A program made the translations under genes and the position numbers. A stretch of 39,092 nucleotides of DNA from Candidatus Micrarchaeota archaeon (GTDB taxonomy: Archaea > Micrarchaeota > Micrarchaeia > Micrarchaeales > CABMGC01). The notes beneath the pieces were generated by a model. The model made no database searches. It had not been told where the DNA came from and was given only the letters and a program-made list of their open reading frames with translations. The first letter of the stretch is position 1, and each line of letters opens with the position of its first letter. Location of the stretch: the NCBI GenBank assembly GCA_021791075.1, contig JAJYXH010000075.1:1-39092 (forward strand), written 5' to 3'. This document shows, piece after piece, positions 1,888 to 38,399 of this stretch.

Positions 1888-4800
1888 ATGGTTAGGAACG
1901 CTTATTTCGCACAGATGCCTGGGAATCCGGGAGAGCAACCAGGAGCTCCAGGCGCTCCAGGCGCAATGCCCGGCCCGTCACAGCCTCCTTCTCGCCAGTT
2001 CCCGCAGCAGCAAGGCCCGATCCCAATAAAGGAGGGAGGCTCCGAGAAGCCCGACGAACTCGTCGAAGAGGTTAACAGGAAGGCCCACCAGAAGAAGATC
2101 GAGACCAAGCTTTTGTCGTATGCCGTAATCGCAATAATCATAGTCGCAGCCGGAGCCTACCTCATACCCCCTCTCCTAAAGCCATCGCCGGTCACCACAT
2201 CAACGACCACCGTTGCCCCGCAGATATTCAAGATATCATCCTGCACTGTCATCACCAAGAGCGGCACCTACTACATCACGGGCAACATCGACACGGCGAT
2301 CCAGAGCGGCTCGTGCATAGATATAATGAGTCCGAATGTCAAGCTTATAGGCAACGGGAACGGCATCCTCGGAAGCGGCCCGTTCGTGATAACGCCGCCT
2401 TTCTCCTACGGGATAAGGATTGACGACGCGAACAACGTCTCTCTCCAGGGGGTGAGCGTCTCAAGATTCTCGTACGATGTCTACCTTAACAGGTCATCGC
2501 AGTCTTCAATACTCAACAGCAGCATAAGGAACGGGACCGTCTCTGGAGTCTACCTAAATTCATCGGTGGGCGACACGCTTGCCAATGACAGCATCTCAGG
2601 GATATCGGGCCCGGCGGGGGCAATATCGCTTCAGGGCGGAGGAAGCTCAACCGTCACCAATGCGGTGATCCAGGGCAATGCATACTACGGTGTTGTCATA
2701 GCCTCAACGGGGAACAGGTTCTCGAAGCTCACCTTCCTAAACAACCCCGTCGACCTGATATGCTCGGGAATCGCAAGCTTCAGCTCGGAGAACAACTTCA
2801 CCGGCTCCACCTGCAGCGTAAACAAGTACTGCGAGTTCGCATACTGCTCAAAGGTCAACCTTCCGGCAAACATAAGCTCTATAACGCTCACAAGGCAGAT
2901 CACAGGATGCGGAGGCATAAGCTCCCCTGGCATCTACCAGGTCCAGACCAACCTCAACCTCTCATCCTACGCCAACGTCTCGGCATCCCCTTCTGTTGCA
3001 TGCATAACCATAACAGCTTCAAACGTAAGGCTGAACTGCAACAACAACGCGATACTCCACTCGGGCTACGGCGTCTCGATACCCTCTCTGGGAACCAGCC
3101 TCTACAACATCTCGATATCCAACTGCACGTTCGCCAACTACACCCACGCCATAAACGTCGGCCAGGTATTCGGATTCAACATAACAAACGTCCGTGCCTC
3201 GGGCGGCGGTGCGGCCATATACCTCCAGAACGGCACGCAGGGAACGGTCTCAAATTCCGTGCTCTCGAGGAACACGTACGGAATATACATCAACGGCACT
3301 TCAACCGGCATAACATTCAGCAACGTGACAGCTCAGGGCAACATCTACGGAGTCTACGCTGCCGCTGGCCAGGCCAACATATATACGCAGAGCAAGTTCG
3401 TCAACAACAGCAAGGAGGACCTGTACTGCACCGCGTCGCAGTACAACTCGCAGAGCAACATATTCGTCAACAACGAGTGCGGCACAACGGACTGCAACTG
3501 GGGAACAACATGCAAGACCCGCACCCTTCCTCCAATAAGCGTCTATCCGCTGAGCGGCTGCTCCACCATAGACACGCCGGGCAACTACTCTCTGAATGCC
3601 GACATAGACACGCAGGGCAACTGCTTCGCCATCAAGGCGAGCAACGTCAACCTCGCCTGCAACGGACATTACATAACGGGAGGTTTCGCAGGCAACGCGG
3701 TCTACGGGTCCGGGGTAAACAACATAACGTTCAACAATTGCAAGATCCAGAACTTCAACACCGCACTTAACTTCAGCAACTCCAACCATCTGAGCTTCAG
3801 TAACATCACAATAAACCAGTCCGGAACTTCAGTATCCATTACAAACAGCATATTCGACAGTATAGTAAAGGTCTCGTCAATACTCGGCGCCCACGGATTT
3901 GTGTTCAAGTACGTAAACGATTCCACTCTTACTAATGACTCGGCGATCTCGGGAAGGCAGAGCGCATCAGGATATCTGCTGAACTACTCATACAATAACC
4001 TAATTGCCTACGACGTCGCATCCTCAAACAATAATTACGGGTTCGCGTTCCTAAACTCAAGGAACAACCAGGTCTCCAACAACACCGCGCAGGGCAACCT
4101 GAAGAGCGACTACTACTGCTCAGCTAACTCCGGAGGACTCTACGCGCAGCAGGGTGGCATAAACAACGGGGTCAGCAAGCAGAACTGCATCTGGCTCGTC
4201 GAGGTGCAGCCCATACCCCAGCAGAACCTCTGCCAGTCTATAAGCAGCTCGGACATAATAACGCTTACCCAGGACATGGTATATCCATATGGCCACGCAT
4301 GCTACACGGTCTACAATACGAATTCCTCTAGCGGCAACGACACCGTGATAAACTGCATGGGACACACCATCTACGCCACGAGAGGCGGAACTTTCGTTGA
4401 CGACATCAACTCCAGCAACGTCCACGTCTCGAACTGCTACCTAAAGTACTTCACCAAGCCGATAATAGTCCAGGGCCCTAACGCGCAGATATACAACAAC
4501 ACTATCGGATCGTCGAACGCATCCATAAGCCTGATCAACGCGTTCAATCCAGTCGTGCGGACCAACAACATAACGAACGCCTCATACGGCATCTTCGTCC
4601 AGTCTGCCGACGACGGCCAGATAAAGAACAACATCCTGACCAATGCGAACATCAGCATCTCGGTGATCGGGTCTGCGAGCCTGCAGGTGCTTAACAATAC
4701 GGTGACCGGCGGATCGCTGGGTCTCTTCATGGAAAAATCGGATGAGATAGTCGTAGGATCAAACCATCTAACCCCTCCAACATCATCTGGAATAGTGTGC

Positions 4801-4911
4801 TCAACAGGATCCAAGAACACAAGCTCCTCGAATGTGGACTTCGGTGACAACGTCTGCTCCGGCAACCAGAACTGCAACTGGATGACCTCGTCGCCTCTGT
4901 GCAAGGTCTGA
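1888..4911 (+). CDS. Membrane-anchored, Cys-rich right-handed beta-helix (PbH1/NosD-like) surface protein with four tandem modules
   Basis: 1007 aa with an ATG start. It has a Pro/Gly/Gln-rich N-terminus, one TM helix (aa ~75-95), and a Thr-rich linker. Four ~220-aa modules follow, each opening with C-x(6-9)-G-x-Y... SNV-x-L-x-C-N-G and full of short N/G/S/T-rich beta-helix turns. I count at least 35 N-x-S/T sequons by eye. Confidence 0.8.
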   Translation: MVRNAYFAQMPGNPGEQPGAPGAPGAMPGPSQPPSRQFPQQQGPIPIKEGGSEKPDELVEEVNRKAHQKKIETKLLSYAVIAIIIVAAGAYLIPPLLKPSPVTTSTTTVAPQIFKISSCTVITKSGTYYITGNIDTAIQSGSCIDIMSPNVKLIGNGNGILGSGPFVITPPFSYGIRIDDANNVSLQGVSVSRFSYDVYLNRSSQSSILNSSIRNGTVSGVYLNSSVGDTLANDSISGISGPAGAISLQGGGSSTVTNAVIQGNAYYGVVIASTGNRFSKLTFLNNPVDLICSGIASFSSENNFTGSTCSVNKYCEFAYCSKVNLPANISSITLTRQITGCGGISSPGIYQVQTNLNLSSYANVSASPSVACITITASNVRLNCNNNAILHSGYGVSIPSLGTSLYNISISNCTFANYTHAINVGQVFGFNITNVRASGGGAAIYLQNGTQGTVSNSVLSRNTYGIYINGTSTGITFSNVTAQGNIYGVYAAAGQANIYTQSKFVNNSKEDLYCTASQYNSQSNIFVNNECGTTDCNWGTTCKTRTLPPISVYPLSGCSTIDTPGNYSLNADIDTQGNCFAIKASNVNLACNGHYITGGFAGNAVYGSGVNNITFNNCKIQNFNTALNFSNSNHLSFSNITINQSGTSVSITNSIFDSIVKVSSILGAHGFVFKYVNDSTLTNDSAISGRQSASGYLLNYSYNNLIAYDVASSNNNYGFAFLNSRNNQVSNNTAQGNLKSDYYCSANSGGLYAQQGGINNGVSKQNCIWLVEVQPIPQQNLCQSISSSDIITLTQDMVYPYGHACYTVYNTNSSSGNDTVINCMGHTIYATRGGTFVDDINSSNVHVSNCYLKYFTKPIIVQGPNAQIYNNTIGSSNASISLINAFNPVVRTNNITNASYGIFVQSADDGQIKNNILTNANISISVIGSASLQVLNNTVTGGSLGLFMEKSDEIVVGSNHLTPPTSSGIVCSTGSKNTSSSNVDFGDNVCSGNQNCNWMTSSPLCKV
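4607..4911 (+). repeat. Direct repeat copy A (last 305 nt of the beta-helix gene)
   Basis: Hand alignment to 7214-7518 (offset 2607) shows only 4 substitutions before the last 5 nt. Confidence 0.95.
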
Positions 4912-10542: not shown

Positions 10543-13500
10543 TCATCCCTTCGCTCTTGCCTTGATATTTGATATCTCGTCCAGCAAGTCCCTCGACTCG
10601 TTGTCGAGCATGTCCGGGAACTTGTATCTCAATGAGCGTTCGTTCTCGTCGTTCATGAAGGTGTACAGCGTCTCGTTCTCCCTTACCTGCCTGCCGAAGG
10701 TCACGTCCTCCATCGAGATGGCGATGCTCTCCCCAGCCTTCGACTCCTTGAGGCTTATCGCGTTGTCCTGCATCTCCTTGACCCTCCCGACTATCTCGCC
10801 GTGCTGGTTCATCAGCTGCCACGAGGGCCTCAGCCTTCCCCTCTCTACCTTCACCCCGAAGACCGCGGGATGTGAGACCCTGAAACAGCTGTTGGGGAGC
10901 ACCGTCAGCTTGCCCGGGAAGACCAGTGACTTCTCTATCGCCTCCTTGTCAATCTTCCTCTCCGCATCGGCCCACTCCTTGTAATCGTCAATTATCTTGT
11001 AGATTATGTTGCTGTTTATTACCCTAATCCCCGTTGCCTCACTCTCGGCCTTCGCCTCGTCGTCAAGCGGTACGTTGAACGCGAGCACGATGCCCCCGTA
11101 GGGGTCGCTCGCCTTCATAGTGTATGCGTCGAGCACGTCCCTCTTTGTCACCCTCCCTATCTCCTTCTTGCTTATGCTTATCTTCTCTGCTCCGAGGAGC
11201 CTCGATAAGGCCTCTATGCTCCCCATCGTGTCGGCCTTCAGTATGACCCCCGTCTTCTCCACGTCGAATATCTCGCTTATCTCCGACTTTATCTCCTGCT
11301 CGTAGTTCGGTATCTCGGTGGAGAGGACCAGCGACCCCGGAAGCGCTCCGTCGAGGTTGGACGCGCTTATCTTTATGCCTGAGGCGGCGCTCACGCTGTC
11401 TATGTAGTAGAACTTGCTCGACGACTCGCGCAGCTCCTGGAGCTCCTTGGGCTTGAGCAGCGCCTTTATCTTCGCCGTGTCTATCCCAGCCGATGTGGCG
11501 AACGCAATGGTGTCATTTACCTTTAGCGTCCCGTTGTAGAGTATCACGTCTATCGTTGACCCGAGCCCCCTGTCCTCCTTCTTCTCTATTATGTTGCCCC
11601 TCCCAGGCCCCTTTACCTCTATCTCAAGGCGCTGCTCCAGGAACCTCTGCGCCAGCCCGGTCGCGTACATGAGCAGCTCCCCGAGCCCCTCCCCTGTCTT
11701 GGCGCTCACCGGAACTATTATTACCTCCTTCTTGAAGTCCTTGACCCTGTCGAACCTCTCGCTGTTGAACCCGAGCTCGCTCAGCTTGCCCACGAGCCCG
11801 TAGATCTTGGCCTCGAGGTCGTTGACCACGTTGCTCCTCTGTTTCGAGATCGTCTCCGTGAATGAGTTAGTAGACTGGATCATCCATCCGGTTATCGCGT
11901 CTATCTTGTTCGCGGCGACTATGAAAGGGGTCCTGTACTCCTTGAGTATCTCTATCGCCTCGTACGTCTGGGGCTCGAAGCTCTTCGTGACGTCTACAAC
12001 GAGTATTGCAAGGTCCGCAACCGACCCTCCCCTCTTCCTCAGGTTGGTGAAGGCCTCGTGACCCGGGGTGTCTATGAAGAGGAGCCCGGGTATGGTGATC
12101 TTGATCCCGAACTTCTCAAGAAGCGGTCCCACTATCTTCTTGATCACGTCAAGGGGGACCTCGCTCGCTCCTATGTGCTGCGTAATGCCCCCTGCCTCCC
12201 TAACAGTTATCGTCGTGCTTCGGATCTTGTCGAGAAGTGAGGTATTGTGTACAATCAGGTTATTTGCCATAAAGTTATGGGTACCATCTACGGTAAAGTC
12301 ATACACTGAGAAGTCCCCCTTCAGGGATTCGGTACCGGTAACTGCAACTGTCTTATATGAAGAGAGCACCGAAGCGACTGGCAAGGCCGCTGTCTCATCG
12401 CTAAAGCCCAGTATTGTTCTGGCGGCGTATCTTGTCAAGTTATTCTTAGACTCATAATAGCCCAGGTCAAATCCGCGTCTTCCGTGTATGTTATACTGAC
12501 CCCTAAGTTCCTTCACGAACCTTCCGCTAAGCGGAGTCATGTCGAATATCCTGCTTGAAACTGCCTTTCCAATATTTCTATTAAGCTTCTCTGCCTTACT
12601 TGGCTCTGTAAAGCCAATGTTTTCTGCAAAGGCAGCAAGGTTTTCCAATCCACTTATGCTGATCTCCAGGGCAGTCCGTTTATATCTCTTTACAAAGTAT
12701 GACAGGCACCCGAATCTGTGTAGCAATGCGGGCAATTGCCTCATCAACACCTGACTCTCGCAGCTAACCCCTATGCTTCCGGTATAATTCTCTGACTCTG
12801 CGAACCCTTCAGCATCGAAGAAACCCTGAACAAACTTTCCGGCAAGGCTGTTGTCCGACATGCTTACTATATCGGGCAGTGCAAGTATCCTTGTCTTGTC
12901 CTTTTCCGGATAGTCAAACACAGCCACTAGAAACTTAGAGAAAGTCCTGCCCCCTTTGTGGTCGACAATATAAGATGTTCTGCGCCAGGCAGATGTTATG
13001 CCTATTCCAAAAGATTTTGTTAGGCACTTCCCAAACTTATCGATCAAGACTTGCGATGTATTGCTCAGTTTCGCCGAAGACCCGATCCCGTCACCGAACA
13101 ACAGCCCGACGGCATAATAAAGTGCCTCAAACTCCTCGCGCTCATGAGGGATCTTCAACCAGTATGATGTGTGACCTGCCCTTCTCTTTTTGGTGCTTGA
13201 CTTTATCGCGTCTATATTATCATAAATCTCCTCTTTGGGATACCCCATGAGAAAAAGAAGGCGCATCAGCACCGATGGCCGGTAGAATCCGCGCCTTAGA
13301 TGATTGTCAAGCGTGGCGTCACCTATCTCACCAGCGAGCTTGTACACCCTGCCACTGCAATAGCGCACGATCTTTTCGTTGAGGCCCTTCGATATCTTAA
13401 CTAGGAAGGTGTCTGGAAGCTTTTCTATTATGCGCTCCTTTATTCCGGTCAGATTCAGTGCTGAGGTATCTGTCTTCAAAGGCACCAATAGCAGATCCCC

Positions 13501-13878
13501 AGCGCGTAGCTCCTCTGCCTTCTTATACGCCGCCGTTCCATCCTCACAAAAGACTAGGAACTTATGCTCCGGAGTGGTCTTTATCTCATAACCTGCCTTT
13601 GTGGTAACGCGGATAAGTCGGTCTGCCTTAAGCTTCAGTACATGACTGACATCCCTGGGAGAGGCTTTACCCCACTCGTCTACCGAGACGAGCGCCATTC
13701 CAGAAGCCTTGTATGCTATGCCATCTGGCTGACTTATGGGGGATCCGTCATTAAAGGTATTGAATGCCGATTCTGCAGACATGATCCTTCCATCGCCTAT
13801 CTCAAGTAGGGTATCTCCGCTAACACATTTGCCATGGTCCACGTGGCCCATCACGCAAATTATCGGCTGACGTATCAT
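10543..13878 (-). CDS. infB: Translation initiation factor aIF5B (IF-2), interrupted by an intein
   Basis: P-loop GHVDHGK, then the intein, then TSLLDKIR. Also DTPGHEAF and NKID GTPase motifs, and a long aIF5B-type C-terminal region. ATG at 13878; the track start at 13887 is GTG. Confidence 0.95.
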   Translation of the reverse strand: MIRQPIICVMGHVDHGKCVSGDTLLEIGDGRIMSAESAFNTFNDGSPISQPDGIAYKASGMALVSVDEWGKASPRDVSHVLKLKADRLIRVTTKAGYEIKTTPEHKFLVFCEDGTAAYKKAEELRAGDLLLVPLKTDTSALNLTGIKERIIEKLPDTFLVKISKGLNEKIVRYCSGRVYKLAGEIGDATLDNHLRRGFYRPSVLMRLLFLMGYPKEEIYDNIDAIKSSTKKRRAGHTSYWLKIPHEREEFEALYYAVGLLFGDGIGSSAKLSNTSQVLIDKFGKCLTKSFGIGITSAWRRTSYIVDHKGGRTFSKFLVAVFDYPEKDKTRILALPDIVSMSDNSLAGKFVQGFFDAEGFAESENYTGSIGVSCESQVLMRQLPALLHRFGCLSYFVKRYKRTALEISISGLENLAAFAENIGFTEPSKAEKLNRNIGKAVSSRIFDMTPLSGRFVKELRGQYNIHGRRGFDLGYYESKNNLTRYAARTILGFSDETAALPVASVLSSYKTVAVTGTESLKGDFSVYDFTVDGTHNFMANNLIVHNTSLLDKIRSTTITVREAGGITQHIGASEVPLDVIKKIVGPLLEKFGIKITIPGLLFIDTPGHEAFTNLRKRGGSVADLAILVVDVTKSFEPQTYEAIEILKEYRTPFIVAANKIDAITGWMIQSTNSFTETISKQRSNVVNDLEAKIYGLVGKLSELGFNSERFDRVKDFKKEVIIVPVSAKTGEGLGELLMYATGLAQRFLEQRLEIEVKGPGRGNIIEKKEDRGLGSTIDVILYNGTLKVNDTIAFATSAGIDTAKIKALLKPKELQELRESSSKFYYIDSVSAASGIKISASNLDGALPGSLVLSTEIPNYEQEIKSEISEIFDVEKTGVILKADTMGSIEALSRLLGAEKISISKKEIGRVTKRDVLDAYTMKASDPYGGIVLAFNVPLDDEAKAESEATGIRVINSNIIYKIIDDYKEWADAERKIDKEAIEKSLVFPGKLTVLPNSCFRVSHPAVFGVKVERGRLRPSWQLMNQHGEIVGRVKEMQDNAISLKESKAGESIAISMEDVTFGRQVRENETLYTFMNDENERSLRYKFPDMLDNESRDLLDEISNIKARAKG
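12244..13827 (-). mobile_element. 528-aa intein with a LAGLIDADG homing-endonuclease domain, inserted in the aIF5B P-loop
   Basis: Starts CVSGDTLL directly after GHVDHGK. Block B TTPEHKF. LAGLIDADG motifs LLFGDGIGS and FVQGFFDAEGFA. Ends ...THNFMANNLIVHN followed by +1 Thr (TSLLD). Removing it gives a ~585-aa aIF5B. It looks more A+T-rich than the exteins. Confidence 0.92.
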
Positions 13879-14047
13879 CTTCTCCACTTCAGTATGAGTA
13901 CAATCTCAATTGCATACAAAATATATAAATAGACGGTAAAGTAGAGCTTATTGCCTGTGGTGAATTGATGATAAGCGTCAGAGCACGGTTAACATTATAT
14001 AAATCCTACGGCAGCATATAGTAAATTGATTTGATAGTGGCGAGTGT

Positions 14048-19779: not shown

Positions 19780-20814
19780 TCAGATCGCGAACAGTATATA
19801 CACCAATATAAGGTTTAATAAGGAAAGGGGAAGGAGCCACGTCCATCCGAACCTGAGTATCCTGTCTATTCTCATCCTCACGGTTGCTGCCCTTATTATT
19901 ATGACAAATAAGGCTATGATGAAGGCCTTCAGAATGAGCCACACCACTCCGGGGAGTACGGGCCCGAGCCATCCGCCTAAGAACAGCATCGCGATGAGCA
20001 GGCTTCCAAGAAATACCTTCGTGTAGTCGATGAAGAGCGCTATCGCGTAGTAGGGGCCGCTGAAGTCAGTGAGCCATCCCGCTATCAGCTCCGAGTCGGC
20101 CTCCCTGAGGTCGAACGGCGGCCTCTCCATCTCCGCGAGCATTGCCACGAAGAAGACGAAGAGCCCGATCGGCATTGCGATCGCGAAGTAAGTGAATCCG
20201 GCCTGCGCGGATATTATCGAGGCAAGGTTGAAGCTCCCCGCGGCGAGGGCGATGGCGGCAACGACTATCACCATCGGAAGTTCGTAACTGACCAGCATGA
20301 GCACTGATCTCTGCGCGCTTATGTCCGCGAACTTGTTTCCCGTCGCGAATCCGGCTATGAATACGGCTAGAGGAAGGAAGGCTATTATGACGAAGATTAT
20401 CAGGAGGCCAAGACCCAGATTGGTTGCCTGGAGGCTCTGCGAGAGCGGAAGCAGCAGTATCAGGAATGTCGGTATCGCCAATAGCAGGATCGGGGCAAGC
20501 TTGACGAGCAACCTGTCAGAGTTAGCCGGCGTTATGTTCTCCTTGGCGAGCAGCTTTATTATGTCGGCGAGGTTCTGCAGTATGCCGTACTTTCCTACGT
20601 ATGTAGGGCCGTGCCTATGGTGGATCTTGGCTATGACCTTCCTCTCCACCCATCCGAATATGTAGGCGAAGATGGAGATCATTATCATTACGGCTATCGC
20701 ATAGATGATTATGGCCGCGGAGTAGAGGAGTACGCTTCCGGAGCCTGTCCACGCCTGCCACCACGAGGCGATCGGGGAGAGCACCGAGTAAATTATGAGG
20801 CTATCTATCAACAC
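19780..20814 (-). CDS. nuoH: NADH-quinone oxidoreductase subunit H (ND1-like)
   Basis: 344 aa and polytopic. ND1 motifs: ERKVIAKIHHRHGP and ERPPFDLREADSELIAG. GTG start, overlapping the nuoD end by 14 nt. Confidence 0.9.
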   Translation of the reverse strand: MLIDSLIIYSVLSPIASWWQAWTGSGSVLLYSAAIIIYAIAVMIMISIFAYIFGWVERKVIAKIHHRHGPTYVGKYGILQNLADIIKLLAKENITPANSDRLLVKLAPILLLAIPTFLILLLPLSQSLQATNLGLGLLIIFVIIAFLPLAVFIAGFATGNKFADISAQRSVLMLVSYELPMVIVVAAIALAAGSFNLASIISAQAGFTYFAIAMPIGLFVFFVAMLAEMERPPFDLREADSELIAGWLTDFSGPYYAIALFIDYTKVFLGSLLIAMLFLGGWLGPVLPGVVWLILKAFIIALFVIIIRAATVRMRIDRILRFGWTWLLPLSLLNLILVYILFAI

Positions 20815-21892
20815 AGGCCATCACCAAGTCAAGAGTTCCCATTATCGCGAAGAGGTCCCCGAGCCGGTGTCCCTTCGCCATGTGGGGCAGTGCAGAGAGG
20901 TTTACGAAGTTGGGGGAGCGTATGGAGAGTCTGTATGGCTTTTGCGGATCGGCGACCATGTACATCATGGCCTCGCCTCGCGGGCACTCCCTGCTGACCG
21001 TCACGGTTCTGTTCTTTGCCGCCGGCCCGATGAGCTTCACCGGCATTCCCTTCGCGTCCCCTTCCGGGATCTGCCTGAGCGCCTCGCGGATGAGCCGCGC
21101 GCTCTCCCTGATCTCCATAATCCTCACCCTGTATCTCGCGAGGTTGTCTCCCCTGTTGTCCGTCTGCACCTCGAAGTGCAGTTTGTCGTAGACATAATAG
21201 GGCTTGGCCTTCCTCACGTCATAAGGCACCCCCGAGGCCCGCAGTACCGGTCCGGTTACGCCGAGGTCCTTAGCCTCCTGCGATGTAAGGACACCAACGC
21301 CCTTCATCCTCTCCATGAAGACCGGGTTCTTCTCCATGAAGTTCTCGTAGGCACCCAGCCTCTTCTCCATATAGTCGAGGAACTCGTTGCAGTTGTCCGC
21401 GAAGTCGGGGGGCAGGTCGAGCGTGACACCGCCGAGCCTCATGCTCACATAGAACATCCTCTGCCCCGTAGTCTGCGCCAGAAGGTCGAGCACTCTGTCC
21501 CTGTCCTCGAAACACCACATGAACATCGTGAACATCAGGCCCATGTCGTTGCACAGGGCACCGGTAAAGAAGAGATGGCTTGCTATCCTCTGCAGTTCGA
21601 GCTGTATCAGCCTGACGTACATGGCACGCTCCTTGACCTCTATGCCAAGCGCGGCCTCCACAGTTGCAACGTACGCATCGTCCATCGCCAGCGGAGCAAC
21701 GTAATCGAGCTTCTCCATGTACGGAGGGCTCTGCATGTACATCCTCGTCTCCACGAGCTTCTCCACCCCCCTGTGGAGGAAGCCTATGTGCGGCTCCAGG
21801 TTCGTTATCGTGTCACCCTCGACGTCGGCTACGAGCCTCAGCACTCCGTGCGTGCTCGGGTGCACAGGGCCTATATTGATCCTTGTAGGCAT
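20801..21892 (-). CDS. nuoD: NADH-quinone oxidoreductase subunit D (49-kDa)
   Basis: 363 aa: INIGPVHPSTHGVLRL..., HIGFLHRGVEK, and C-terminal DLVMACVDR. Confidence 0.92.
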   Translation of the reverse strand: MPTRINIGPVHPSTHGVLRLVADVEGDTITNLEPHIGFLHRGVEKLVETRMYMQSPPYMEKLDYVAPLAMDDAYVATVEAALGIEVKERAMYVRLIQLELQRIASHLFFTGALCNDMGLMFTMFMWCFEDRDRVLDLLAQTTGQRMFYVSMRLGGVTLDLPPDFADNCNEFLDYMEKRLGAYENFMEKNPVFMERMKGVGVLTSQEAKDLGVTGPVLRASGVPYDVRKAKPYYVYDKLHFEVQTDNRGDNLARYRVRIMEIRESARLIREALRQIPEGDAKGMPVKLIGPAAKNRTVTVSRECPRGEAMMYMVADPQKPYRLSIRSPNFVNLSALPHMAKGHRLGDLFAIMGTLDLVMACVDR

Positions 21893-21895
21893 CTA

Positions 21896-22282
21896 TCATT
21901 CACCATCCGCAGTCTTGTAGTCGCTGTTCCACTTGAAGCTCTTCCGAAATGGAGGCTCTGTCCCGTCCCACTTCTCCAGGAGAAGCCGCTTAGCTATCCT
22001 GCCGCGTATCTGTATCCCGAACATCTCCGAGAGCTCGCGCTCGTACCAGTCAGCGGCGGGGAACGTGTCTATCACGGTCGGAAGCCACGCGTCCCTAGGA
22101 TCGAGCTCAATCTCGAGCGTCTCGTCCTTTCCGGACTTCATCTCCCTGAGGAAGTATATCGCGGTCATGCTCCTCTCGTAGTCTACGGCCGTTATCTTAA
22201 CGAGATAGTCGTATCCGGCTCCCTTCATGCTCCGGACAATGTGCATCAGTTCGTTCCTATCGATCTTCAATCTCTCCACCAA
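21896..22282 (-). CDS. nuoC: NADH-quinone oxidoreductase subunit C (30-kDa), short form
   Basis: 128 aa: ...ITAVDY..., ANWYERE-like [14 protein letters not shown]. The start is ambiguous: TTG at 22282, GTG at 22279, or ATG at 22246. Confidence 0.8.
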
Positions 22283-22838
22283 GCTTATTCTGTAGTTTTA
22301 TCAGTGCAGCAAAGAGGTTCTCCGGCCTGGGCGGGCATCCGGCGACGTAGACGTCCACGGGAAGGACCTGGTCTATTCCCCTGACTATGTTGTAGCTCTC
22401 CCACCACGGCCCTCCGCACGTGGCGCACTCCCCGAACGCTATGACGTACCTGGGCTCCGCCATCTGCTCGTAGAGCCTCTTGATCTCGGGCACCATCGAC
22501 TTCGTGACCCATCCGGCAACCAGCATGACGTCGCACTGCCTCGGGGTGGCCCTGAAGAGCAGGTATCCCTTCCTCTCCGCGTCTACCCTTGCGGCTCCGA
22601 AGTCCATCAGCTCTATCGCGCAGCAAGCGAGCCCGAACTGCAGCGGCCAGAGCGAGTTCTTCCTCGACCACCTCACCGCGTCCTTCGTCGGGGGCATCGA
22701 CTTGATCAGGTCCGCGAACTTCGCAAAGACCACGTTGGGCTTCGCCTGCTTCTCGGAGACCGAGCCCGCAACGAGCAGGTCCATCTCCCTCCTGGCGTTC
22801 AGGAATTCTGGGCTATCGTGGTCTATCTCATCGCTCAT
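22257..22838 (-). CDS. nuoB: NADH-quinone oxidoreductase subunit B (PSST, N2 cluster)
   Basis: Motifs [10 protein letters not shown], ...[10 protein letters not shown], and GCPPRPE. I prefer ATG at 22838 (MSDEIDHD); the track start at 22865 is TTG. Confidence 0.9.
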
Positions 22839-37319: not shown

Positions 37320-38318
37320 CTACCACGACGCCTTCTTGGCCTTGTAGTACGCAAGGACGTACTCCGACATCATCGGGTCGGGATCTACTCCGAGCGCAGC
37401 CGCAACCCTGCTTATGGACTCAGCATCGATCCTGTGCTCTATGCCATAGAGATAGTAGAGCGAGATCAGGTAGATAACGGGGTTCTTGAAGCGCGGAGGC
37501 GTAATATCTGCGAGAGTCTTATCATCTGGAGTTATCCCTAATGAGGAGACCACCCTGCCTATGTTGTCCGGGGTCATAACCCTGCCGGTGAATGCAAGCA
37601 CGCCTATCGCGCCGATATACGGAAGCATCGACGGGCTCGCGGTGATCTTATCCGCGCACGCCTCGAGCGTGTTGTTGAGCTCCCTCGCGGCCAGCTCTGC
37701 CATTGAGTGCGAGAGGTCAAGCATCCCGAGGTAGAATCTCCTGAAGAACTTCCTGTCCGGCCCTTCCCTGTTTAGCTCCATGCCTACGTTCTCCGGAGGC
37801 CGTGAGCCGTACTCATGCGAGTACTCTATCACGTATCCGGCAATCCTCTGGTCCGGAGCCACCTCAAGGTTCCTCACCACTTCCACGACTCCGTTTATTC
37901 CTTCCGCCATGCCATTGAGCCTGAGGTACTGCAACGCCGTTATGTAGACGAGCTCGTTGGTGTAGTGCAGTTTGCCCAGTGCGTAGAGGAACTCCTGGTT
38001 CGGGTTTATTCCGACAGCAGCAAGCAGCCCCATTATTCCAGCATCGCCTATCTCCTTGCCAGAGAAGGCAAGGGCTCCGGCAGCGGCTATGTAGGGCGAC
38101 ATCCCCTTGTCGAGGTAGGCCGAGACCATGGGATTCTCCAGCGCGCGCAGTATCTCGCGGGTGACCATGCCTGTGCAGATCTCCATTCCTGTCCTTATCG
38201 AGTCAGCGACCATGCTGCTTAGCCTTTCTGTGCCAACGTTCTCTGCCATATCCAATATATCCGCATTCAGGTTTAAAATCAGATGCGAATGCATCCGCCC
38301 GGCATGCGCGGGGCTCAT
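37320..38318 (-). CDS. Uncharacterised protein built from two ~149-aa repeats with ribosomal-stalk-P1-like helical motifs
   Basis: Internal duplication: both repeats start at ENVG (aa 43 and 192 of the track ORF). The repeat cores are SPYIAAAGALAFSGKEIGDAGIMGLLAAVGINPNQ and LPYIGAIGVLAFTGRVMTPDNIGRVVSSLGITPDD. The track start at 38369 is TTG; candidate ATGs are at 38318, 38294 and 38249. Confidence 0.6.
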   Translation of the reverse strand: MSPAHAGRMHSHLILNLNADILDMAENVGTERLSSMVADSIRTGMEICTGMVTREILRALENPMVSAYLDKGMSPYIAAAGALAFSGKEIGDAGIMGLLAAVGINPNQEFLYALGKLHYTNELVYITALQYLRLNGMAEGINGVVEVVRNLEVAPDQRIAGYVIEYSHEYGSRPPENVGMELNREGPDRKFFRRFYLGMLDLSHSMAELAARELNNTLEACADKITASPSMLPYIGAIGVLAFTGRVMTPDNIGRVVSSLGITPDDKTLADITPPRFKNPVIYLISLYYLYGIEHRIDAESISRVAAALGVDPDPMMSEYVLAYYKAKKASW

Positions 38319-38399
38319 GACTCCTCCAAAGACGGGGAGACCAGCACAAGATCGTTTCTGCTTTGTCAATGACGGCTATGCCACCCAAGGTCGCCGTTG

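Follow-up and report, generated by a model that had tools for sequence, protein, structure and literature searches.

A tail-less family of tandem modules homologous to the N-terminal domain of archaeal stalk protein P1, found in a Micrarchaeota contig

A stretch of 39,092 nucleotides (nt) from Candidatus Micrarchaeota archaeon (contig JAJYXH010000075.1 of assembly GCA_021791075.1, which is JGI contig Ga0438459_0001551; hereafter the window) carries on its reverse strand a gene for a 309-amino-acid (aa) protein, P0001. We show that this protein does not count among the ribosomal stalk proteins proper but is a diverged paralogue of one of them, archaeal P1. Two repeat units make up the chain in the order alpha0-A-B-linker-alpha0'-A'-B', each unit consisting of a helix of ~35 aa (alpha0), a short helix and two homologous three-helix modules of ~48 aa (A and B), and the modules are truly homologous to helices alpha1-alpha3 of the N-terminal domain (NTD) of P1/P2. 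The protein belongs to an undescribed family in which a known domain stands in a new architecture. Taken as a whole, the data are best explained, we believe with moderate confidence, by a family of P1 paralogues that may work as a self-clamped scaffold.

Tandem modules homologous to the P1 N-terminal domain

The two halves of the protein share 28% identity over 116 aa (BLASTP, E 2e-13), and their Smith-Waterman score of 123 compares with 28.9 +/- 4.9 in 2000 shuffles (maximum 59, z = 19). The internal duplication proposed in a first-pass annotation, which had been made from the sequence alone, therefore survives shuffling. Its period of 149 aa does not hold, as the conserved cores stand in a register of 158-159 aa instead, YIAAAG at aa 93 pairing with YIGAIG at 251 and INGVVE at 158 with ESISRV at 317 (numbered along the whole open reading frame (ORF)). 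The ENVG motifs that had been placed at ORF aa 43 and 192 as markers of the unit starts cannot serve as such: the second copy is at 193, within the linker between the units, and the two copies are 8 residues out of register. The two helix-turn motifs described for each unit correspond to modules A and B, whose family alignments (hidden Markov model (HMM) columns 52-98 and 103-151) are homologous to one another by hhalign (98.4%, E 4.5e-15, 44 columns). AlphaFold2 models the full-length protein entirely as helices, with a predicted local distance difference test score (pLDDT) of 83.8 and a predicted template modelling score (pTM) of 0.82; the corresponding values for unit 1 alone are 85.8 and 0.70. 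The protein is soluble, all-helical and mildly acidic (isoelectric point 5.2). What had been envisaged as a covalent pseudo-dimer of stalk domains does join P1-like domains in one chain, but it contains four modules together with two long helices.

Four independent comparisons lead to P1/P2, all in one register that begins at P1 residue 1-3. The NCBIfam model TIGR03685 (ribo_P1_arch) matches 60 of the 73 single-unit members of the family, with a best E of 4.4e-14. For P0001 alone it is the top NCBIfam match, although a weak one (E 2.3e-4, 21.4 bits against a cut-off of 100); no Pfam model matches P0001, PF00428 (Ribosomal_60s) included, and just 2 of the 73 single-unit relatives match PF00428 at E <= 0.01. 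A profile of the single-unit family searched against the PDB retrieved the Pyrococcus horikoshii P1 NTD through module A (3A1Y_A, E 5.1e-11), as well as yeast and human P2 (E 4e-4 to 6e-3), the human P2 NTDs 2LBF_B, 4BEH_B and 4V6X_Cu being reached through module B (E 2e-3 to 6e-3). Against a profile of 120 genuine P1s, which were mostly 101-110 aa long as retrieved (range 101-139), hhalign aligned module A at 98.0% (E 2.2e-13) and module B at 97.3% (E 2.2e-11), and found no similarity for the alpha0 region. Lastly, a Foldseek search of the PDB with the model of unit 1 matched 3A1Y_A with a probability of 0.97, a target TM score of 0.67 and a root-mean-square deviation (rmsd) of 0.6 Å over 40 columns at 35% identity.

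The same structural search matched chain Cs of the human ribosome 4V6X (probability 0.87, TM score 0.73, rmsd 1.5 Å), taken here as a stalk chain whose identity as P1 or P2 is unconfirmed. Only these two chains had an rmsd below 2 Å, all others lying at about 10-20 Å. The short length of the domain (~45 residues) leaves both with poor Foldseek E-values (2.3 and 3.3). The full-length model returned nothing significant from the PDB, only long helical or membrane proteins at E >= 0.07 and rmsd 16-44 Å; the P1 domain is too short for a global search, so the single-unit model was needed. Within P0001 itself, three of the four modules fall in register with P1 positions 3-36 of a P1-NTD HMM, the exception being module B of unit 1. 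Across the family the alpha1-type helices are strongly conserved and hydrophobic, with Y53, Y102 and L109 invariant or nearly so. The resemblance of the repeat cores to the P1/L12e NTD, which the first-pass annotation had put forward, is upheld by the PDB profile search, the hhalign comparisons and the close superposition on 3A1Y_A.

The resemblance could instead be due to chance, with P0001 an unrelated helical-repeat or EF-hand-like protein and its similarity to P1 a compositional accident. The insignificant full-length Foldseek search, the E-values of 2.3 and 3.3 for the P1 matches and the appearance of EF-hand proteins at E 0.1-1 in profile searches all lean that way. Against it stands the convergence of the four comparisons (TIGR03685 in 60/73; PDB profile at 5e-11; hhalign at 2e-13 and 2e-11; 0.6 Å at 35% identity) on one register of one domain, and we consider chance very improbable. 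A relation to EF-hand proteins was rejected, the matches in question (troponin C, myosin light chains, calmodulin and S100) not being significant; the Pfam model EF-hand_EFHB_C matched 2 of 73 single-unit members at E 0.006.

Three parts make up archaeal P1 (aP1): an NTD for dimerisation and aP0 binding, a flexible hinge, and a C-terminal region to which translational GTPases bind (PMC7768734). Neither a hinge nor an acidic or LFG-type C terminus occurs in any of 167 family sequences, and P0001 ends in ...YYKAKKASW; the absence of an acidic tail, noted earlier for this one protein, is thus true of all of them. With the hinge and the C-terminal tail missing, the protein cannot recruit translational GTPases. 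IMG/JGI names both P0001 and the single-unit protein P0164 'ribosomal protein L12E/L44/L45/RPP1/RPP2' (COG2058), a label that misleads because the family members have no functional tail. Genuine P1s in IMG/JGI are named 'large subunit ribosomal protein L12'.

Taken at face value, the COG2058 name on P0001 and P0164 implies that P0001 is the real, if highly divergent, stalk P1 of the organism, and TIGR03685 is indeed its best NCBIfam match. We find this scarcely credible. The match amounts to 21 bits against a cut-off of 100, PF00428 is not matched, and the protein is three times the size of P1, has four modules and is encoded outside any P0 operon; the hinge and tail that it does not have are the functional part of P1 (PMC7768734). 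Moreover, according to a COG-based survey the ribosomal proteins retained by small archaeal genomes, including those of DPANN, comprise all the universal ones and most of the archaea-specific ones, and the listed losses do not include P1 (bioRxiv 10.1101/2021.01.31.429008), so that a canonical P1 is expected in the genome alongside this gene.

An exhaustive profile search of 1.84 billion representatives recovered 159 clusters (defined at 50% identity) at E <= 1e-3, 139 of them at E <= 1e-10; a word-indexed search returned seven clusters only. The sequences in hand include 73 single-unit proteins (about 145-175 aa, typically about 155 aa) and 63 two-unit proteins (about 300-345 aa, typically about 315 aa), and alpha0 is present in all full-length members. 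Among two-unit proteins, the best match of the N-terminal unit was the N-terminal unit of another protein in 64 of 66 cases, and that of the C-terminal unit was another C-terminal unit in 62 of 66; both units of P0001 follow this pattern. The pairing of like with like indicates that the two units were fused once, long ago.

In a collection of species-representative genomes the two-unit form had four matches, all in metagenome-assembled genomes of Candidatus Micrarchaeota. One single-unit member lies on a 1.2-Mb contig, and the genes at single-unit loci are typically archaeal (FEN1, KaiC-like ATPases, Sua5, Trm1 and DUF357). Scans of viral contigs and Foldseek searches against viral structures found no viral copies. 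The family has no Pfam or NCBIfam model of its own, and literature searches brought up no paper on a P1 paralogue or a DPANN stalk variant, in agreement with the first-pass remark that no such family had been described.

A candidate self-clamped scaffold

In the crystal structure of an archaeal stalk, hydrophobic residues of the P0 spine helices contact alpha1/alpha1' of the P1 homodimer (PMC3616719). We propose that a comparable arrangement may form within a single chain. Modules A and B would pair as two P1 NTDs do in a dimer, and alpha1/alpha1' of the paired modules would clamp an amphipathic helix in the way the P1 dimer clamps the P0 spine helix. The clamped helix would be the protein's own alpha0, taken from within the unit or exchanged with the partner unit; an exchange of this kind would explain both the existence of single-unit forms and the viability of the two-unit fusion. 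The outcome would be a rigid, self-contained pseudo-tetramer of P1-like modules acting as a protein-protein scaffold, with single-unit members forming the equivalent homodimer.

Mean-field direct-coupling analysis of 220 units (effective number 204), from which the top 150 couplings were taken, lends weak support to a clamp in cis. The commonest inter-module helix pair among these couplings is alpha1-alpha1', and 13 of the 22 couplings between alpha0 and a module helix go to alpha1 or alpha1', compared with 38% expected from the share of these two helices in the module-helix columns (binomial p = 0.035). The pTM of 0.70 for the unit alone implies a confident placement of alpha0 relative to its modules, and together with the value of 0.82 for the whole protein it suggests that alpha0 and the two units are packed in a defined way.

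Several observations weigh against a self-clamped scaffold. The coupling analysis is underpowered, with about 200 sequences for 153 columns, and alpha1/alpha1', as the most hydrophobic helices, would draw couplings in any compact fold. Alpha0 has no detectable sequence similarity to the P0 spine helices, and no P0 chain appeared at E <= 10 in the PDB profile search. Module B of unit 1 does not match the P1-NTD HMM on its own, and no counterpart of P1 helix alpha4 was seen in the modules, so their pairing may differ from that of a true P1 dimer. Gene context offers no functional clue either: when ORFs within 5 kb were clustered across 16 non-redundant loci and recurrent neighbours were compared with Pfam, no conserved neighbourhood emerged.

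Functions tied to the stalk, for which the first-pass annotation had named a stalk mimic, a competitor and an assembly factor, were also weighed, and the present data lend them no support. The protein could be a tail-less competitor for P0 that leaves fewer factor-recruiting tails on each ribosome and slows translation, or else a placeholder in stalk assembly. For the placeholder there is a precedent in Mrt4, a paralogue of the stalk component P0 that is itself P0-like, binds rRNA and holds a place during assembly. It is the P0-binding domain itself to which the modules are homologous, their alpha1-type helices are still conserved and hydrophobic (Y53, Y102 and L109), and reconstituted P1/P2 dimers missing one C-terminal domain still bind P0, with lower activity (PMC3616719). 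A truncated P1 would suffice for such a role, yet every family member has an extra helical N-terminal region of ~50 aa, and co-variation of the alpha0 region with alpha1/alpha1' suggests that the groove is already occupied. The gene was never beside P0, P1 or ribosomal genes in the loci examined, and the family is rare, its 159 clusters (50% identity) standing against 1.84 billion representatives. We regard a competitor or placeholder as unlikely.

Alternatively, the protein may act away from the ribosome as a partner of free P1, which it would store, chaperone or sequester, either through an alpha0 that mimics the P0 helix or through a module that heterodimerises with P1. Here only the architecture speaks in favour, with amphipathic helices of ~35 aa set beside P1-like modules, and P1 NTDs are known to clamp such helices (PMC3616719). 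Given that alpha0 is dissimilar to P0 in sequence and that the couplings suggest it is engaged within the protein itself, a P1 partner seems improbable. A single-chain imitation of the stalk base, with a spine helix and a P1 dimer in one protein and doubled in Micrarchaeota, might serve some small-genome archaea to tune translation; by docking on P0 instead of P1 dimers with tails, or by capturing free P1, it would set the number of factor-recruiting tails per ribosome. This we consider unlikely. The self-clamped scaffold is the explanation that we prefer.

The gene and its surroundings

Gene calls place the start of P0001 at ATG 38249, identically on 18 contigs drawn from four independent data sets (JGI, ENA, NCBI and Logan assemblies), and alignments with six remoter homologues (84% to 37% identity) begin at about the same codon. 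A TTTTAAA sequence lies upstream (Table 1) at a position that fits an archaeal TATA box of a leaderless mRNA, and the homologue at locus L010 has a similar TTTAAAC upstream. From the start calls, the homologue alignment and this box, the 40-aa extension that would begin at TTG 38369 is probably untranslated, and ATG 38249 was chosen over TTG 38369, ATG 38318 and ATG 38294. The first-pass annotation had described an ORF at 37320-38369 with a start to be chosen among ATG 38318, 38294 and 38249. That ORF is present on the reverse strand of the window, but its coding part begins at ATG 38249 and comprises 309 aa.

Table 1 Features of P0001, its gene and adjacent or recurrent neighbours (positions in the window unless a locus is named; aa numbered from ATG 38249 unless marked ORF)
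Feature	Position	Strand	Basis and remarks
Coding sequence of P0001, 309 aa	37320..38249	-	Includes TAG stop 37320-37322; start ATG 38249; gene calls, homologue alignment, translation
TTTTAAA, TATA-box-like, putative promoter element	38272..38278	-	Centre ~26 nt 5' of ATG 38249; read from the sequence
Repeat unit 1, aa 1-149	37803..38249	-	HMM of 73 single-unit relatives, E 6e-33 (107 bits)
alpha0 of unit 1, long N-terminal helix, aa 4-38	38136..38240	-	AlphaFold2 helix 4-38 and 2-37; block-mean pLDDT about 75-90
Module A of unit 1, aa 51-95, three helices, P1-NTD-like (SPYIAAAGALAFSGKEIGDAGIMGLLAAVGINPNQEF...)	37965..38099	-	TIGR03685 positions 3-36 align with ORF aa 93-126; P1-NTD HMM also positions 3-36
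Module B of unit 1, aa 98-148, three helices, homologous to A	37806..37958	-	Family-level hhalign
Inter-unit linker RPPENVGMELN, aa 150-160, holds second ENVG	37770..37802	-	Between HMM domain envelopes; block-mean pLDDT falls to about 65-74 over aa 141-170 (AlphaFold2)
Repeat unit 2, aa 161-308	37326..37769	-	Single-unit HMM, E 4.4e-29 (95 bits)
alpha0' of unit 2, long helix, aa 164-199	37653..37760	-	AlphaFold2 helix 164-199
Module A' of unit 2, aa 209-252, P1-NTD-like (LPYIGAIGVLAFTGRVMTPDNIGRVVSSLGITPDD...)	37494..37625	-	P1-NTD HMM positions 3-37; AlphaFold2 helices 206-220, 227-235, 243-249
Module B' of unit 2, aa 255-308, P1-NTD-like	37326..37487	-	P1-NTD HMM positions 10-36; AlphaFold2 helices 257-269, 276-285, 292-308
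Y1_Tnp (IS200-type transposase) fragment, 95 aa	38410-38697	+	Directly upstream of the gene, opposite strand
ABC exporter-DUF1854, ~860 aa	L018 6527-9100; L024 636-3275; also L022, L023	same as homologue	After the single-unit homologue

In the window the gene has as neighbours PNPOx, glycosyl hydrolase, CitMHS transporter and zf-CDGSH genes and an IS200 remnant. Its earlier placement between a PPOX-like gene and an IS200 remnant stands, the former being the PNPOx_N gene downstream and the latter the Y1_Tnp remnant upstream. The spacing from zf-CDGSH to the gene is identical on the related contigs L001 and L003, where no transposase gene was called; from this equal spacing, the remnant seems to be fixed in the population.

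Loci were scanned with a narrow family alignment. The sole neighbour found in more than three loci is an ABC exporter with a C-terminal DUF1854, present at four loci of one metagenome (VFSW01); the adjacency is unseen in other lineages and is probably lineage-specific synteny. A second recurrent cluster, at three loci (L013, L018 and L021), comprises large proteins without confident domain matches, and the remaining neighbours are variable (KaiC-like ATPases, aldehyde dehydrogenase, a ParA-like gene, PhoU/PHO4 and SDR). At two unrelated-looking loci the single-unit homologue has, 1-3 kb away, a DEAD/ResIII helicase gene with an RNA_helicase_helical domain (L019, 1961-3313, reverse strand; L025, 3465-5024, forward strand), too few cases for an association.

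Archaeal P1 is usually encoded together with P0 and further ribosomal proteins. Adjacency to P0, P1 or other ribosomal genes was found at none of the loci examined, and neither the window nor loci L001-L017 contain a P1-like ORF with an acidic tail. The window does encode a translation factor at 10543-13887 (reverse strand), an aIF5B/IF-2 of 1114 aa (GTP_EFTU, IF-2 and EFTU_D4 domains) that is split by an intein with a LAGLIDADG homing endonuclease. aIF5B is among the GTPases recruited by the stalk; its gene is 24 kb from the P1-like gene and no link between them was seen.

Two further ORFs of the window were recorded. One of 529 aa at 20795-22384 (forward strand) has no Pfam match at E <= 1e-5; a 363-aa ORF (20801-21892) overlaps it on the other strand, and the gene for an NADH dehydrogenase subunit at 19780-20814 (reverse strand) abuts it. 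The other, at 1888-4911 (forward strand), encodes a 1007-aa protein, possibly located at the cell surface, whose C-terminal part has NosD and right-handed beta-helix repeats.

Significance and comparison with known systems

To our knowledge, the P1/P2 NTD has no known role other than to attach factor-recruiting stalk proteins to P0, and neither a paper nor a Pfam or NCBIfam family that we found gives it another. The present family, with ~159 sequence clusters, shows this NTD tandem-duplicated, tail-less and joined to a long helix. If the self-clamp is true, the protein would offer, in one natural chain, a model of the stalk base and a case of a ribosomal module turned general scaffold. If P0 or P1 is still bound, ultrasmall symbiotic archaea would have in it a translation regulator of a new kind, and if it imitates the stalk base to tune translation, it would be the first regulator from nature that acts in trans on the composition of the P-stalk. 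In practical terms, pipelines that assign COG2058 mislabel the family as L12E/P1, which misleads annotation and counts of ribosomal proteins.

The closest known relative is aP1 (TIGR03685, PF00428, 3A1Y). Common to both are helices alpha1-alpha3, a register from P1 residue 1-3 and three motifs: Y-[IV]-[YA]-A-A... in alpha1, a G-[KR]-[ED]-I turn and L..[AS].G[IV].P[DN] at the end of alpha2. However, aP1 has one domain in about 105 aa followed by a hinge rich in Ala, Pro and Glu and a C-terminal factor-binding tail, whereas P0001 has four modules and two long helices in 309 aa and neither hinge nor tail. The likeness to the stalk base formed by the aP0 spine helix and the aP1 dimer (3A1Y) would lie in an amphipathic helix gripped by alpha1/alpha1' (PMC3616719); the difference would be that the helix is alpha0, unlike P0 in sequence and supplied in cis or by the fused partner unit.

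The eukaryotic P1-P2 heterodimer (2LBF, 4BEH, 4V6X) is similar in that two diverged copies pair, as proposed for modules A and B, and P2 NTDs are the PDB sequences that module B matches best. In the heterodimer the two copies stand in separate proteins, both of which have a hinge and a tail; the modules here form a covalent tandem without tails. Truncated P1/P2 dimers (PMC3616719) and Mrt4 are likewise tail-less or truncated relatives of stalk proteins that occupy stalk sites and do not recruit factors. The former are laboratory constructs and the latter is P0-like and binds rRNA.

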